DNA of 64,000 nucleotides from NCBI GenBank assembly GCA_050180485.1, contig JBFXED010000003.1, positions 23,654 through 87,653 of the forward strand. The letters run 5' to 3'. The stretch comes from Alphaproteobacteria bacterium (GTDB lineage: Bacteria > Pseudomonadota > Alphaproteobacteria > CADEGL01). Of the stretch, positions 5,273-11,573 are shown one piece after another; within the stretch, counting starts at the first letter, position 1, and the number at the start of each line of letters is the position of its first letter. Both the position numbers and the translations under genes were made by a program. Below the pieces are notes generated by a model that searched no databases, was not told the DNA's origin, and was given only the letters and a program-made list of their open reading frames with translations.

Positions 5273-5902
5273 ATGACCGATAGCCCCGAAACCCTGGTGC
5301 AGGCAATGAAGGCCGCGCGTGCCTGCACGTTGTGTGCGGCACATCTGCCGCTCGGGCCCCGGCCGGTGCTGCGGGGCTCGCCCACGGCCCGCCTTCTAAT
5401 CGTGGGCCAGGCGCCCGGCACGCGGGTGCACGAATCGGGCGTGCCCTGGGACGATCCGTCGGGGGACCGCCTGCGCGCTTGGCTCGGCCTCGGGCGCGAG
5501 GCGTTCTATGACGAAGCCCGCATCGCCATCGTGCCCATGGGGCTTTGCTATCCCGGGCGCGACGCGAATGGCGGCGACAAGCCGCCGCGCCCCGAGTGTG
5601 CCCCGCTCTGGCATCCGCGCGTGCGCCCGCTACTGCCGAGGGTCGCGCTGACCCTGATCGTGGGTCGCTACGCCCAGAGCTATTACCTCGGCGCCCGCGC
5701 GAAGCAGAGTGTGACGGACACGGTGCGCGCTTGGCGCGAATTCCTACCGGACTTCATCCCGACACCGCATCCGAGCTGGCGCTCGAACGGCTGGCTCAAG
5801 CGCAACCCGTGGTTCGAGACAGAGATCCTGCCGGTCCTGCGTGAGCGCGTGGCCGTGCTGGTCAGCGCACCAGGACCAAGGGGCAGGAAATCCGGTCCAT
5901 GA
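5273..5902 (+). CDS. uracil-DNA glycosylase, family 4/5-type
   Basis: Motifs ARACTLCAAHL, LIVGQAPG and C-terminal PTPHPSWRS (HPS motif). Start at MTDSPETL. Confidence 0.8.
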   Translation: MTDSPETLVQAMKAARACTLCAAHLPLGPRPVLRGSPTARLLIVGQAPGTRVHESGVPWDDPSGDRLRAWLGLGREAFYDEARIAIVPMGLCYPGRDANGGDKPPRPECAPLWHPRVRPLLPRVALTLIVGRYAQSYYLGARAKQSVTDTVRAWREFLPDFIPTPHPSWRSNGWLKRNPWFETEILPVLRERVAVLVSAPGPRGRKSGP

Positions 5903-6707
5903 GCCGGTCGGCCGCGTCGCCCTTGGCGAAAGCGCCGTTGGCGCCCACCACCAGGACGGCATGCTGGATGCGGCGCGCGAAGCCGCATAGGTCGATCAGG
6001 CTGGGTTCACCCAGGATTTCGACCGTGCCCTCGACGCCAAGCCGTTCCAGAACCCTGGTCGCGCGCGCCCGCAATTCCTCGGCCTTGGGCGAATCGGCGG
6101 CGATCACCAGGACCGCAAGCGTGGCGCGGTTGGCGGCGGCCAGCCGCGCGGCAATGACCAGGGCGCGATCGGCCTCCGGCGTATCCTCATAGGCGACCAG
6201 GAAATTGCGCGCATCGAGCGCGCCGCGACGCAGGACCATGACCGTGCGCGCGGTCTGGCGTGCGACGGCGCGGGTACCCGAGCTCATCTGGACGCGCCCG
6301 CGCAGAATCTCGGTCAGGCCCTCCAGCACGATCAGATCGGCCTCGCCGGCTGCGGCCGCGACCTCGCGGCCGATCTCGCCGCGCGCCACGCGGAAGGAAA
6401 AGCCCAGACGGCGCCGCCGCGCCGCGGCCTCGACGAGCTGGCGCGCGCGGGCGGCGCGGGCGCGCATGTCGCGTTCGATCGCGGCCGGTTCGAATGCCTG
6501 CCATTGGCCGGACGCCAGATTGATCTCGCGCACGAAGGGCAGGGCCGCCGAGCGCAGAAGATTGGCGTCCTCGACGAAAAGACCGACCAGTTCGGCATGC
6601 AGCCGCTCGGCCAGCTCCGCCGCGGCCTCGAGGGATTCGGGCGATTCCGTCGCGGCGTCGAGCGCGAAGATGATGCGCCGGATAACGATGTCGGCCGGGC
6701 CGGTCAC
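5862..6707 (-). CDS. tandem universal stress protein (UspA-UspA)
   Basis: Two USP-like halves (IVIRRIIFALDAATES...DLIVLEGLT and NFLVAYEDTPEADRA...VGANGAFAKGDAADRLMDRISCPLVLV). GTG start at 6707 overlaps the upstream Lon-like stop in a GTGA motif. 281 aa. Confidence 0.7.
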   Translation of the reverse strand: MTGPADIVIRRIIFALDAATESPESLEAAAELAERLHAELVGLFVEDANLLRSAALPFVREINLASGQWQAFEPAAIERDMRARAARARQLVEAAARRRRLGFSFRVARGEIGREVAAAAGEADLIVLEGLTEILRGRVQMSSGTRAVARQTARTVMVLRRGALDARNFLVAYEDTPEADRALVIAARLAAANRATLAVLVIAADSPKAEELRARATRVLERLGVEGTVEILGEPSLIDLCGFARRIQHAVLVVGANGAFAKGDAADRLMDRISCPLVLVR

Positions 6708-9157
6708 GGCGTGCGGCCCTTGTGGGCGAAGCGGCGCGCGGCCGCGGCGAACGCATTCAGCCGCGCCTGAACGCGGCCGTTGATCGTGTTCGCGGGATAA
6801 CGCCCGTTCTTGCCTTGCGCGCCGGCAGGCACGCCGGTCAGAACCTCGATGCCCTGGTCGATGGTCCCGATCGGGAAGACGCGGAACTCGCCTTTCTTCG
6901 CCGCGGCCACGATGTCCTCGCGCAGCATCAGATGGGCCACATTGGTCGCGGGAATCATCACGCCCTGCTGCCCGGTCAAGCCGCGCACCTTGCACAGATC
7001 GAAGAAGCCTTCGATCTTTTCGTTCACCCCGCCGATGGCCTGCACGTTGCCGTGCTGATCGACCGAGCCCGTGACCGCGAAGCTCTGCTTGATCGGTGCT
7101 TCCGACAAAGCGGAGAGGAGCGTGTAAAGCTCGGCGGACGAAGCACTGTCGCCGTCGACGCCGCCATAGGATTGCTCGAACACCAGGCTGGCCTTGAGCG
7201 ACAGCGGCTGCTCGGCGCCATAGCGCTCGGCCAGGAAGCCTTGGAGGATCAAGACACCCTTGGAATGCAGCGGCCCGCCCAGCGCGACCTCGCGTTCGAT
7301 GTCGACCACCTCGCCCTTGCCCAAACCCACCGAGGCCGTGATGCGGCTCGGCTTGCCGAAGGAATAGTCGCCGAGCGAGAGCACGGACAGGCCGTTCACC
7401 TGGCCGACTTTCTCGCCGCTGGTGTCGATATGGACGATGCCGCGCACCGTCTGTTCCTCCATGCGCTCACGCATGCGGTCGGAACGGCGGATTTGCGCGG
7501 TGATGGCCTGGTCCACGTCCTTGGCGTCCACCGTATCGGCCTTGCGCTGTCCGGCCCAATAATCGGCCTCGCGCAACAAGCCGCCGACGCGGCGCAACTC
7601 CATGGACAGGCGCTCGCTGTCCTCCACCAGCCGCGCGGCGCGGTCCATCACCTTGGCGATGGCGGGGGCGGTGAAGGGGCGCAGCTTGTCGCCGTCGATC
7701 AGGCTGGCCAGGAAGCGGGCATAGAGCTTGCCGTTCTTGGGCTCGCGCTCGACATACTCCTCGAAATCGACCGGCACCTTGAACAGCTCGCCGAACTCCG
7801 GGTCCGCCGTAGCCAGCAGGTAGTAAAGCTGCCGGTCGCCCAAGAGGATGACCTTGATGTTCAAGGGGATGGGCTCGGGTTCCATCATCATGGAGCCCGC
7901 TCCGCCGAAGGCGTAGCCCAAGGGCTCGATGCGGATCTCGCGGCTGCGCAGCGCGTGCTTGAGCTCTTCCCAGCCATAGGGCTGCATCAGCACCTTGCGC
8001 GCATCCACGACCAGGTAGCCGCCATTGGCCTTGTGCAAAGCGCCCGGCAGGATCATGGAGAAGTCGGTCACCAGCGCGCCGAACACGGCGCGGAATTCGA
8101 ACTTGCCGAACAGGTTGGGATGGTTCGGGTGATCTTCGTAGATGACCGGCGCGCCTTGGCGGTCGGTATTGTCGATCAGGACGTTCACCTTGTAGCGCGC
8201 GAACGGTGACGCGGCGGCGGGCGGCGGCGCGCCTGGTACCGGCGCGGCCGGCTGGTCGGGCCTCAGGAAATCCTCCGCGTTGTCGATCATGTCCTTCTCG
8301 ACCGCGGCCAGGTATTCCATCACCTCCGGCACGTCCGCGTAACGCTTCTTCACGTCGTTCAAAAGATGCGTGATGGCGAACTGTGCCGTATGGCGGTTCA
8401 AGTTGCGCATCTGTTTTCGCGCTTCTTGTTCCCACGCGGGAAGCTTCTGCAGGACCTGCTGCAATTCGGTCTGCAGTCCCTCGATGGTCTTTTGGATCGC
8501 CTGCTTTTCCTCGGCGGGAAGTTTCTGGAACTCCTCCGGGTCCATCACCTCATCGCCCTTGATGGGGGCGAGGGTCAGGCCCGCGGGCGTGCGGATCAGC
8601 GCGGCGCCCTTGGCTTTGGCCTTCTCCTGGAATTCGCTGAAGGCGCCTTCGTGGAGCTGCTTCATGCGCTCCTCAATGGCCTGGCGCTGGCCGCGGAACT
8701 CCTCGGTCTCGAAGGCGGCCGGCAAGGCCGCACGCAACTCGTCGATCAGATGGTCCATGTCGGCGCGGAACGGCCGCGCCTTTCCGGGCGGCAGGCTCAG
8801 CGCTTGGGGCTTATAGGCGTTCTCGAAATTGTGGACGTAGCACCAATCGGCCGGCACCGGTTCGTTGGCGGCTTGGCGTTCCAGGAATTGGCGCACCATC
8901 CGGTGCTTGCCGATGCCGTCGGGGCCCAGCGCGAACAGGTTGTAGCCATCCTGCACCATGCCGATGCCAAAGCGGATGGCTTCCATCGCCCGCTCCTGGC
9001 CCAGCGCCTCGTTCAGCGGCTCGACCTCGGCCGTGGTCTTGAAGCCCAAGCCGGCGGGGTCGGTGCGGCGGCACAAGATGTCAGGCGCCAAGGGGGTGGC
9101 TTTCGCGCGCGCTGTCACTCCGGCGGTCTTCTTCTGGGGCTTGGCGGTCTTCGGCAT
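6704..9157 (-). CDS. Lon-family protease with large AAA-like N-terminal domain (LonC/AAA_32-type, S16 C-terminal domain)
   Basis: 817 aa from MPKTAKP. N-terminal P-loop-like GPDGIGKH. C-terminal S16 catalytic dyad context GGVDGDSASSAELYTLLSAL (Ser) and TGSVDQHGNVQAIGGVNEKIEGF (Lys), parallel to E. coli Lon DGPSAG / IGGLKEK. Confidence 0.85.
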   Translation of the reverse strand: MPKTAKPQKKTAGVTARAKATPLAPDILCRRTDPAGLGFKTTAEVEPLNEALGQERAMEAIRFGIGMVQDGYNLFALGPDGIGKHRMVRQFLERQAANEPVPADWCYVHNFENAYKPQALSLPPGKARPFRADMDHLIDELRAALPAAFETEEFRGQRQAIEERMKQLHEGAFSEFQEKAKAKGAALIRTPAGLTLAPIKGDEVMDPEEFQKLPAEEKQAIQKTIEGLQTELQQVLQKLPAWEQEARKQMRNLNRHTAQFAITHLLNDVKKRYADVPEVMEYLAAVEKDMIDNAEDFLRPDQPAAPVPGAPPPAAASPFARYKVNVLIDNTDRQGAPVIYEDHPNHPNLFGKFEFRAVFGALVTDFSMILPGALHKANGGYLVVDARKVLMQPYGWEELKHALRSREIRIEPLGYAFGGAGSMMMEPEPIPLNIKVILLGDRQLYYLLATADPEFGELFKVPVDFEEYVEREPKNGKLYARFLASLIDGDKLRPFTAPAIAKVMDRAARLVEDSERLSMELRRVGGLLREADYWAGQRKADTVDAKDVDQAITAQIRRSDRMRERMEEQTVRGIVHIDTSGEKVGQVNGLSVLSLGDYSFGKPSRITASVGLGKGEVVDIEREVALGGPLHSKGVLILQGFLAERYGAEQPLSLKASLVFEQSYGGVDGDSASSAELYTLLSALSEAPIKQSFAVTGSVDQHGNVQAIGGVNEKIEGFFDLCKVRGLTGQQGVMIPATNVAHLMLREDIVAAAKKGEFRVFPIGTIDQGIEVLTGVPAGAQGKNGRYPANTINGRVQARLNAFAAAARRFAHKGRTP

Positions 9158-9174
9158 GGGCTCGCTCGCTCGGC

Positions 9175-9636
9175 TCAGGCGGTGGCTTCGATGCGTTCCA
9201 TGTCCGCGTCCGACAGGCCAAAATGATGGCCGATTTCGTGGATCAGGACATGGCGCACGACGTGGGTCAGATCGTCGCCGGTCTCGCACCAATAATCCAG
9301 GATCGGACGACGGTAGAGGAAGATCATGTCCACGTCCTGGCCGACGGCCAAGTTGGACTTCCGGCCGATGGCTATGCCGCGGTAAAGCCCCAGGATGTCG
9401 AAGGGGGACTCCAGCCCCATCTCCTCCTCAGTCTCGGCGTCGGGAAACTCGTCGACGCGGATGACCACGCCATCGAGATTGCCGGCAAAGGGTGCGGGCA
9501 GGGCGGCCAATGCGGCCTCCGCGATGGCGTGCAATTCGTCGAGGCTCGGCGGCGTCTTGGGCAAGGGCGGGCTCCCGGCTTGCTCCCCGGCAGGGCGGGG
9601 GCCATGGTTGGTCCTATCAATATAGGAGCGGAGCAT
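9175..9636 (-). CDS. zincin-like metallopeptidase family protein (small HExxH protein)
   Basis: [11 protein letters not shown] zinc-binding motif near the C-terminus, about 153 aa. Sits 18 nt upstream of the Lon-like gene on the same strand. Confidence 0.7.
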
Positions 9637-9925
9637 GGTGGAAAAACTGACGGGTGCGGCACGAACGGCGGCCCTGGCCAAGCTCAAGGGCTGGCGCGAG
9701 GTGGAGGGGCGGGATGCCATCCACAAATCCCTGCGCTTCAAGGGTTTCAACGAAGCCTTCGGCTTCATGGCGCGCGTCGCGCTCCAGGCCGAAAAGGCCG
9801 ACCACCACCCCGAATGGTCGAACGTCTACAACAAGGTCGAGATCACCCTCGCGACCCACGAATGCGGCGGGCTTTCCGCGCGCGACGTGACGCTGGCCGA
9901 ATTCATCGACGGGATCGCGGGCTAG
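9635..9925 (+). CDS. phhB: 4a-hydroxytetrahydrobiopterin dehydratase (pterin-4a-carbinolamine dehydratase)
   Basis: 96 aa with the EKADHHPEW motif. Length and pattern are typical of PCD/DCoH. Confidence 0.9.
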
Positions 9926-10239: not shown

Positions 10240-10340
10240 GACGCTCTCCTCGCCGTCTTCGATTGCGCGAGGCTCACGCGCGCGCATGCACGGCGCAAAC
10301 GACGATTTCTCAGGCGGTTGATGAGGAAAACTGATCTTGC

Positions 10341-11573
10341 CTAGACGGCGCGGTCCAGCGCATCGACCAGGCGCCGCACATCCTCGGCCGAATTGTAGTG
10401 GACCAGGCTCGCGCGCACGACGCCGCCGCGCGGCAGGTAGCCAAGACTTTCCACGGCGCGATGGGCATAGAAGATGCCGTGGCGCAGGCCCAGCTTGTGT
10501 GCATCCAGCGCCTTCGTGACTTCGCCGGAGTTCTTGCCCTCGACGACGAAAGAGAAAGTGGGCGCGCGCAAGTGCCGGTCGGCGCGCTTGCGACCGATCA
10601 GTTTCACCCGCTTGTCGGTGGACAGGAAATCGGCCAGCGGCTTCGAAACGGTCTCTTCGTGGCGCGCCATCAAATCGTAGACGCGGTCAAGCTGTTCGCC
10701 GAAGGGGCGGTTCGCGCCGGGGAAATGATGGGCGTGCAACGCCTGGAAATAATCGGCGATGCCCGCAGCGCTCGCGACCGTCTCGTAGTCGTAGCCGCCC
10801 ACGTTCATCTTCAACGGGATATTGTCCTCGGCGATGAAGAAATGGTTCTGGCCCTTGAGCGAAAGCATGTGCTCGCGCTTGATGTACATGAGCCCGTGGT
10901 GCGGGCCGAAAATCTTGTAAAGGCTGCACAGGTAGAAATCGACGTCGGTGGCGCGCACGTCGACGCGCCGGTGGGGCGCATGCGCCACGCCGTCGATGCA
11001 GACAAGCGCGCCTGCGCTGTGGGCCAGCTTCGCGATGGCGGCCGCGTCGTTCTCGCTGCCGGTCACGTTCGAGCAGTTGGTGGCGCAGACCAGCTTGGTC
11101 TTGCCGGTCAGCAGCGCTTCCAGATCGTCCAGCTCCAGATCGGCCGTCTCGGGCCGCATGCGCCATTCCCTGATGACGACGCCCATGTCGGCCAGGCGGC
11201 GCCAAGCGCCGTTGTTCGATTCATGGTCCAGGTTGGTGACGATGACCTCGTCGCCGGCCTTGAGCCGCGAACGGAAGGCGTTGGCCAGGACAAAGACGTT
11301 GTTGGTGGTGGAATGGCCGAGAACGATCTCCTCCGGTGTCGCGTTGATCAGCGCCGCCATGGCGCGCTTGGCCTCGGTCAGCCGCTCGGTCGCCTTGGCC
11401 GAAGGTCCGTAAGTGCCGTTGGGCTGCACGCGCGAAGTGGTCAGGTAATCCGTCATCCGCGCGATGAACTGCTTGGGCACCAGCGTGCCGCCTGCGTTGT
11501 CGAAATAGCCCCAGCCGTCGGCCAGCTGTGGGAACTGGGCGCGGACAAAATCGATGTCGAGGCGGTCGGCCAT
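10341..11573 (-). CDS. class V aminotransferase-fold PLP-dependent enzyme (cysteine desulfurase/SufS-like family)
   Basis: 410 aa from MADRLDIDF. DNAGGTLVP N-terminal block and SLYKIFGPHHGLMY PLP-lysine region. Confidence 0.8.
   Translation of the reverse strand: MADRLDIDFVRAQFPQLADGWGYFDNAGGTLVPKQFIARMTDYLTTSRVQPNGTYGPSAKATERLTEAKRAMAALINATPEEIVLGHSTTNNVFVLANAFRSRLKAGDEVIVTNLDHESNNGAWRRLADMGVVIREWRMRPETADLELDDLEALLTGKTKLVCATNCSNVTGSENDAAAIAKLAHSAGALVCIDGVAHAPHRRVDVRATDVDFYLCSLYKIFGPHHGLMYIKREHMLSLKGQNHFFIAEDNIPLKMNVGGYDYETVASAAGIADYFQALHAHHFPGANRPFGEQLDRVYDLMARHEETVSKPLADFLSTDKRVKLIGRKRADRHLRAPTFSFVVEGKNSGEVTKALDAHKLGLRHGIFYAHRAVESLGYLPRGGVVRASLVHYNSAEDVRRLVDALDRAV

Follow-up and report, generated by a model that had tools for sequence, protein, structure and literature searches.

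The 64-kb stretch of DNA analysed here (the window, with a GC content of approximately 65–67%) belongs to an alphaproteobacterial metagenome-assembled genome and encodes, co-directionally on the minus strand, a mini-zincin metallopeptidase, a Lon-family Ser-Lys protease of the LonC type and a universal stress protein (Usp)-like protein with tandem domains. As judged from gene context across genomes and metagenomes, LonC and its dedicated tandem Usp form a widespread, translationally coupled two-gene module with near-obligate linkage. In the reading favoured here, which we consider moderately probable, the window carries a three-gene operon (zincin, lonC, usp), the core of which is the LonC–Usp module with Usp as a regulatory or adaptor subunit of LonC. 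As far as the literature was searched, this pairing is undescribed and appears to be the new part of the result; searches for LonC or Lon-like proteases together with a universal stress protein, or for AAA_32/PF20437, returned no relevant paper, and neither of the two LonC papers (PMC3391209, PMC13069640) mentions a Usp or an operon. The initial annotation of the locus had delineated the three open reading frames (ORFs), the coordinates and quoted motifs of which, GGVNEKIEG included, were all recovered. Its observation is confirmed and its interpretation partly supported; what it missed is the widespread near-obligate pair of LonC and tandem Usp, which is absent where LonC was characterised.

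The linkage was approached from both sides. In a forward scan of one genome per GTDB species, 80 LonC loci with 45–57% identity were collected, 79 of which could be evaluated, one locus being truncated, and neighbours were detected by phmmer and jackhmmer with the window proteins over six-frame ORFs. In 50 of the 79 evaluable loci, distributed over approximately ten phyla, LonC is followed directly on its own strand by a Usp-like ORF; the Usp-positive taxa include Alpha-, Beta- and Gammaproteobacteria, Chloroflexota, Acidobacteriota, Deinococcota (Trueperaceae) and Rhodothermota/Bacteroidota, and further Chlorobiota, Planctomycetota, Myxococcota and Desulfobacterota. Upon all-against-all clustering of the flanking ORFs within 3.5 kb, Usp was the only family present in more than seven loci. 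The converse scan, seeded in metagenomes with the signature of the partner, recovered 80 loci (27–59% identity), and in all 69 of the 69 Usp loci extending upstream by at least about 150 nt the C-terminus of LonC is encoded directly upstream on the same strand, the remaining 11 having no LonC match because the upstream sequence is missing. At the depth of this metagenome scan, the Usp subfamily is, by its gene context, a dedicated LonC companion. The Lon–Usp linkage is thereby non-fortuitous, as the initial annotation had proposed to assess by neighbourhood conservation, and the zincin does not share in this as a general member. In Candidatus Leptofilum proximum (L023, 4227–5165), a relative of the partner Usp is encoded on the LonC strand at a distance of 0.8 kb upstream instead of downstream. 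The cultured carriers of the pair include Sulfitobacter sediminis (L073), in which a Usp-like ORF comes after lonC.

The two genes are also closely apposed. Depending on the start choice, an (A/G)TGA overlap joins LonC stop and Usp start in 22–27 of 51 loci; the start codon nearest to the LonC stop overlaps it in 41 of 51 loci and lies at most 31 nt from it in 49 of 51. The same overlap is present in the gene calls of L082, L083, L084, L087 and L171. In the window, the GTGA overlap noticed in the initial annotation proved exact to the nucleotide (Table 1) and supports the translational coupling suggested there. On one long-read metagenome contig (L173, 1911–4857), gene calling broke the triad into pieces (AAA_32 alone, 87 aa, 177 aa, 108 aa), most likely as a result of sequencing frameshifts rather than of pseudogene formation.

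On a neighbour-joining tree of LonC, occurrences of the partner are dispersed over the entire clade and alternate with patches of absence, a pattern that fits an ancestral LonC–Usp linkage followed by repeated loss. The distance matrices of LonC and Usp are correlated (r=0.74; 0 of 2000 permutations as high), and the mean identity of the partner is 26% as compared to 50% for LonC, indicating that the partner evolves faster.

The window Lon protein, which is 100% identical to one in GCA_050183015.1, matches the Pfam families LonC_helical (1.6e-16), AAA_32 (4.7e-50), LonB_AAA-LID (8.3e-21) and Lon_C (2.3e-07), and its best solved relative is MtaLonC, the TTC1975 peptidase (4fwd; phmmer E=5e-93). 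Its AlphaFold2 (AF2) model, with a mean predicted local distance difference test score (pLDDT) of 78.5, corresponds to the full-length cryo-EM structure of LonC 8k8v_A with a template modelling (TM) score of 0.87 (E=1.9e-52). The features of LonC membership that can be read from sequence and fold are present, namely a Ser-Lys dyad with Asp preceding the catalytic Ser, which is the rule for LonB and LonC (PMC9569914), degenerate Walker A and B motifs and a helical hairpin which replaces the membrane anchor of LonB or the N-domain of LonA. By sequence and model, the protein is a clear member of LonC (MEROPS S16 subfamily C), and its initial description as a Lon protease of the Ser-Lys type whose AAA-like module is degenerate is borne out by the Pfam architecture and the alignment with MtaLonC. 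The possibility considered in the initial annotation that the protein is a canonical LonB with an intact Walker A is ruled out by the NCBIfam LonB (TIGR00764) score of 141.2 bits, under the cut-off of 516.6, and by the degenerate Walker motifs.

These features extend to the family, for which more than 7000 homologues were found at E<=1e-10. Among 81 LonC sequences, Ser671 and Lys714 are both invariant (81/81); position 85, following the GK of the P-loop, is H in 38 and R in 16 of the 81, with S or T in only 13, and the Walker B Asp is followed by A, V, S or G in all 81 sequences and by Glu in none. An intact predicted protease dyad alongside degenerate ATPase motifs is shown by the aligned LonC family. 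Within the helical-hairpin extension, the AF2 secondary structure consists of helices at residues 127–182 and 215–292 and strands at 185–200, where a beta-hairpin is formed.

Much of what can be said about the biochemistry of such a protein derives from MtaLonC, in which GPPSLGKHE is Walker A-like, GYLILDA is Walker B-like and devoid of Glu, and ATPase activity is absent (PMC3391209, 2012; PMC13069640). As resolved by cryo-EM in 2024, its P-loop takes phosphate only, its helical hairpins (HHE) form a basket bearing beta-hairpin hooks, and the enzyme, which is reported to be heat-shock induced, alternates between a hexamer acting as protease and a heptamer acting as chaperone (PMC13069640). Degradation by LonC is reported to be limited to unfolded substrates (PMC3391209; PMC9569914), and ATP-independent proteolysis of unfolded substrates combined with chaperone activity is established for MtaLonC only (PMC3391209; PMC13069640). 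The initial idea that the non-canonical P-loop indicates an ATP-independent protease fits LonC; it is not novel, having been published for MtaLonC (PMC3391209, PMC13069640). ATP-independence is established for the LonC type and would apply to the window protein by family membership.

In comparison to MtaLonC/TTC1975 peptidase (S16.007; Meiothermus taiwanensis, Thermus thermophilus), the window protein has the same domain order and fold and shares the Ser-Lys dyad with Asp, GPxxxGKH, GYLxxDA without Glu and the helical hairpin with its beta-hairpin. It differs in an overall identity of approximately 29%, in being ~85–120 aa longer, chiefly in the hairpin extension and at the N-terminus, in its origin from a mesophilic, non-thermophile lineage and in having a translationally coupled tandem-Usp gene, which the Meiothermus and Thermus lonC loci lack. 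The LonC genes of Meiothermus and Thermus encode proteins of 696–747 aa and are followed by Peptidase_S41 or a convergent penicillin amidase, and in the Thermus loci inspected the gene calls within 4 kb of LonC include no Usp. With archaeal LonB (TonLonB, TIGR00764), the window LonC has in common AAA_32 with a LonB-type AAA-LID and a B-type protease domain, and is distinguished from it by a soluble helical hairpin in place of the membrane anchor and by its degenerate ATPase motifs.

The partner protein matches Pfam Usp in two stretches (E=1.6e-11), and its AF2 model, built with 38 homologues, is of high confidence (pLDDT 88; predicted TM score 0.86). In a search of the PDB with this model all top matches were tandem Usps (TTHA0350, Rv2623, UspE), the best being TTHA0350 of Thermus thermophilus (TM 0.77–0.83, 26% identity), which the family profile also matches over its full length (E=1.4e-23). 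With two alpha/beta Usp domains in one chain, the window protein is of the tandem type, as the initial annotation had it. The LonC-associated Usps are, by their sequences, a distinct subfamily, of which a profile search at E<=1e-30 recovered 2264 representatives of 50% identity clusters, almost uniformly about 280 aa in length. Their N-domain is strongly conserved in RRILVALD, AELxGLFVEDxxLLRLAALPFxRE and SFRVxRG, the C-domain weakly. The most conserved family-specific segment reads AELVGLFVEDANLLRSAALPFVRE in the window protein, and AELxG[LV]F[VI][EQ][DE] was chosen automatically from this segment as the family signature; LLRLAALPF is a conserved hydrophobic stretch located in the helix-and-loop region after the second strand of the Usp model.

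The nucleotide-binding signature of classical Usps is absent from most partners examined. In the window protein, the canonical ATP motif G-x2-G-x9-G-[S/T], searched for as a regular expression, is missing in both domains, and the protein does not qualify for the ATP-binding (MJ0577-like) Usp class. The motif is absent from 105 of 135 full-length partners, the N-domain keeping it in 26 and the C-domain in 4. TTHA0350 (PDB 3ab7/3ab8), the closest solved relative, which has the LFVxD..L.R segment of the N-domain in common with the window Usp, differs in that its N-domain possesses a canonical G-x2-G-x9-G-S; the protein was crystallised with ATP. A role of the partner as an ATP sensor in trans is disfavoured by the missing motif in the window protein and most of the family.

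A deviating partner is encoded in L171 (4001–5059) and L172, where a 195-aa protein consists of the N-domain only and its gene nevertheless retains the 4-nt overlap with the LonC stop. Behind this half-size partner, a CBS-pair protein of 152 aa is encoded separately, which gives the impression of an exchanged second ligand-binding domain. A general association of CBS proteins with LonC was dismissed as anecdotal, as apart from L171/L172 they were encountered near just two other loci.

The third gene encodes a mini-zincin, in agreement with the HExxH metallopeptidase called initially. It matches Zincin_1 with E=4.6e-36 (123 bits versus a cut-off of 22.4) and PDB 3e11 with E=2.8e-10, and its motif HEXXHXXGXXD, which defines the DUF1025 mini-zincins, a family for which peptidase activity has been reported for no member (PMC3890501), is largely invariant in 10 homologues (H133, E134, G136, H137, H138, F139, G140, S142, D143). 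With this motif and a single domain in the range of ~110–130 aa, the protein is a member of Zincin_1/DUF1025. It resembles the mini-zincin Acel_2062 (PDB 3e11) in HEXXHXXGXXD, the minimal single domain of ~110–130 aa and the lack of a signal peptide; unlike Acel_2062, it is encoded co-oriented upstream of a LonC gene. The initial annotation placed the gene correctly and its start, at 9636, probably too far upstream. The maximal ORF starting with ATG 9636 would overlap the start codon of the divergent Pterin_4a gene (9635, plus strand), the ten homologues are conserved only from PPSLDEL onwards, in the alignments the ATG starts of homologues fall on TTG 9564 of the window, and the public gene call is 129 aa, all of which make the 9636 start unlikely; the real gene is likely the 129-aa frame from TTG 9564. 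The tight spacing to LonC noted initially holds, the gap between the zincin stop and the LonC ATG being 17 nt (9158–9174) instead of 18.

Two proteases hard-wired to a Usp, as the initial annotation put it, is an overstatement. A zincin gene is found 5′ of LonC in 5 of the 80 species-genome loci (L012, L017, L022, L039, L047), which occupy one region of the LonC tree including the window, and in all examined metagenomic relatives of the window, down to 58% LonC identity, where the triad is kept; among the ~25 metagenome loci with sufficient upstream sequence it was found in 0. By this distribution, the zincin is a lineage-specific addition of one LonC subclade, outside the conserved core. An integrated proteolytic cascade in which zincin, LonC and Usp are all obligate is accordingly a doubtful proposition, of low probability: it would account for the same-strand gap of 15–71 nt seen throughout the zincin-bearing loci, for the zincin staying with LonC where Pterin_4a (L087) or Usp (L022, L047, in which the zincin is present) is absent, and for the occurrence of the block on a contig labelled as Acidobacteriota (L039), yet it conflicts with the restriction to one subclade, peptidase activity has been reported for no DUF1025 member, and the synteny is ambiguous with Pterin_4a nearly always beside the zincin. 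Of the 12 intact loci with a zincin that were checked, 11 have this divergent gene next to it, L087 being the exception, and the Pterin_4a cluster is present in 6 of 6 zincin loci of the flanking-ORF clustering. Returning to the favoured operon, the short gaps suggest that the zincin is co-transcribed with LonC in the window clade, with a putative functional tie.

Two observations on the zincin position may be added. The 315-kb contig L039, labelled Candidatus Sulfotelmatobacter (Acidobacteriota), carries the complete Pterin_4a–zincin–LonC–Usp block and its LonC nests in an otherwise alphaproteobacterial zincin clade, which suggests horizontal transfer or a mis-binned contig. In a Chloroflexota clade (L008, L009, L013, L018), a 4HBT_2 thioesterase gene is located just 5′ of LonC on the same strand, in the slot of the zincin.

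In the favoured mechanism, LonC would be a soluble chambered Ser-Lys protease and holdase with an AAA-like ring devoid of ATPase motifs and a basket of helical hairpins, and the tandem-Usp-fold protein, co-transcribed and translationally coupled, would be made in step with it. Bound to LonC, the Usp partner might gate substrate access or bias a protease/chaperone oligomer switch of the MtaLonC type upon a stress or metabolite cue. The part of the partner facing LonC could be the conserved N-terminal Usp domain with the AELxGLFVED..LLRLAALPFxRE segment, and the mini-zincin, as a lineage-specific accessory, might trim peptides.

A number of points weigh against this mechanism. A Mantel correlation as observed would be expected for any two vertically inherited genes. 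Approximately 29 of the 79 LonC loci of the same clade (~37%) are without the partner and have unrelated genes downstream, and the characterised LonCs of Meiothermus and Thermus have no Usp partner; these partner-less loci imply that LonC can work alone. No replacement partner is apparent in the Usp-less loci, the downstream genes being heterogeneous (DnaJ, PhoU_div, nucleotidyltransferase, GDH, PRTase, BolA, STAS, peptidase M3 and others), and Usp-linked and Usp-less LonCs are alike in the length of the hairpin insertion (252 versus 252 residues) and of the C-terminal tail (48 versus 47). With the ATP motif missing from the majority of partners, the simple idea of an ATP sensor in trans is weak, and frequent partner loss together with the missing nucleotide motif argues for caution. 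Moreover, the adjacency of the zincin could be plain lineage synteny, considering the Chloroflexota thioesterase in the equivalent position, and the limits of the putative transcript are drawn from spacing only, a sigma-70 scan of 5600–9900 having given 0 promoter-like sites and terminator-like matches in this region being at background level and all within coding sequence.

It is somewhat unlikely that LonC and the Usp-like protein are co-regulated stress genes which act separately without contact. Usp genes are frequent passengers of stress operons, LonC works alone in vitro, MtaLonC is reported to be heat-shock induced (PMC13069640) and more than a third of the LonC loci do without the partner, all of which would be accommodated by such an arrangement; the invariable linkage in the converse scan, the 4-nt overlap and the family-specific motif of the N-domain nevertheless exceed what co-regulation needs.

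A stronger form of the regulatory subunit reading, put forward tentatively as a possibility, holds that the ~810-aa LonC clade is a two-component protease which depends on a dedicated tandem-Usp subunit docking on the ring or the basket. Through the Usp subunit, proteolysis or the holdase switch would respond to a small molecule or a stress signal, the ATPase of LonC having been lost, and the occasional swap of a second sensing module, with the N-domain-only partner and CBS protein of L171, fits such a protease. If true, the regulatory half of the system would have escaped the biochemistry done on the partner-less Thermaceae LonCs.

It is unlikely that the Usp-like protein, instead of being an adaptor or sensor, serves LonC as an intrinsic inhibitor or first substrate, in the manner of a plug or an antitoxin-like brake which sits in the basket or chamber until it is removed by stress. 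The order of the genes with the protease first and the translational coupling, leading to near-stoichiometric synthesis, as well as the much faster evolution of the partner and the conserved hydrophobic LLRLAALPF are compatible with this explanation; yet the partner is modelled as a compact tandem Usp with confidence and LonC reportedly degrades unfolded substrates only, and a toxin-like phenotype is known for no LonC. The present data do not distinguish activation from inhibition.

Returning to the LonC–Usp module with Usp as a subunit, its significance lies in its breadth. LonC has been treated in the literature as a minor curiosity of thermophiles, being counted in a 2022 paper as eight MEROPS members from thermophiles (PMC9569914), and the architecture described here is very widespread; in most lineages sampled, LonC is paired with a dedicated tandem Usp which the model organisms happen to lack. 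The pair provides a handle on the control of ATP-independent chambered proteases and on the role of orphan Usp-fold proteins.

The initial annotation had also raised the possibility of a phage-responsive module, which is unsupported. An anti-phage or abortive-infection function of the proteases, conceivable insofar as Lon-like proteases occur in BREX (BrxL), is extremely improbable: the PADLOC scan of all three proteins provided no meaningful family match beyond a weak, sub-threshold one to BrxL over the protease domain (E=0.0022, 14 bits), the flanking genes are housekeeping (uracil-DNA glycosylase (UDG), LigT, aminotransferase, acetoacetyl-CoA synthetase-like), the base composition of the locus matches the flanks and the synteny is stable and apparently vertically inherited.

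Table 1. Coordinates of genes and motifs of the zincin–lonC–usp locus in the window.
Feature	Position	Strand	Basis
Mini-zincin gene (Zincin_1/DUF1025, provisional MEROPS M94), likely extent	9175..9564	-	Pfam, PDB 3e11, homologue starts, public gene call
Asp-zincin metal-binding/catalytic motif HEXXHXXGXXD, predicted	9208..9240	-	read in sequence
LonC-type Lon-family protease gene, 817 aa	6704..9157	-	Pfam, phmmer, AF2 model
Walker A-like degenerate P-loop GPDGIGKH, residues 78–85	8903..8926	-	aligns with MtaLonC GPPSLGKH
LonC-specific helical-hairpin extension, ~residues 104–330	8168..8848	-	Pfam LonC_helical at 104–137; AF2
Walker B-like GYLVVDA, residues 380–386, without catalytic Glu	8000..8020	-	aligns with MtaLonC GYLILDA
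Predicted catalytic Ser671, GDSAS context, Asp before Ser	7145..7147	-	aligns with MtaLonC S582
Predicted catalytic Lys714, NEKIEG context	7016..7018	-	aligns with MtaLonC K625
GTGA overlap, Usp start GTG (6707–6705)/LonC stop TGA (6706–6704)	6704..6707	-	read in sequence
Tandem Usp-like gene, 281 aa, LonC-associated	5862..6707	-	Pfam Usp in two stretches, AF2, profile
Most conserved family-specific partner segment, residues 38–61, AELVGLFVEDANLLRSAALPFVRE	6525..6596	-	homologue alignments
Pterin-4a-carbinolamine dehydratase gene, divergent, upstream boundary	9635..9925	+	Pfam Pterin_4a
Uracil-DNA glycosylase (UDG) gene, convergent, downstream boundary	5273..5902	+	ORF list, UDG annotation

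Regarding the locus itself, the three ORFs are to be taken as genuine genes and not as chance ORFs of high-GC DNA, as judged by the family E-values and the thousands of homologues. At the downstream boundary, the 3′ ends of Usp and the UDG-family gene overlap convergently by 41 nt (5862–5902), so that there is no space for a terminator; this convergent arrangement is also kept in L082, L084 and L087. At the upstream boundary, no clear sigma-32-like −35 element was discernible by eye 5′ of CCTATAT in the intergenic region. The 70-nt divergent region between Pterin_4a and zincin contains a perfect 6+6 inverted repeat, TCCTATATTGATAGGA (9612–9627, minus strand), which could be an operator or due to chance; the palindrome is common only to the window and its closest relative, L082, and was on this ground rejected as a conserved operator of the pterin-4a dehydratase–zincin intergenic region. 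A second element, TCAAGC(C/T)GG(G/A), situated at ~9574–9585 of the window, ~20–30 nt 5′ of the zincin start, is also present in L083, L085, L017 and L022. It is conserved where the intergenic regions of the relatives have otherwise diverged and may be an element of the 5′ untranslated region or the ribosome-binding site region. In the 86%-identical relative L082, a gene for DarT, a DNA ADP-ribosyltransferase toxin, is located (at 10310–10469) just past a FIST gene, and the window genome has a TPR/glycosyltransferase gene at this position.

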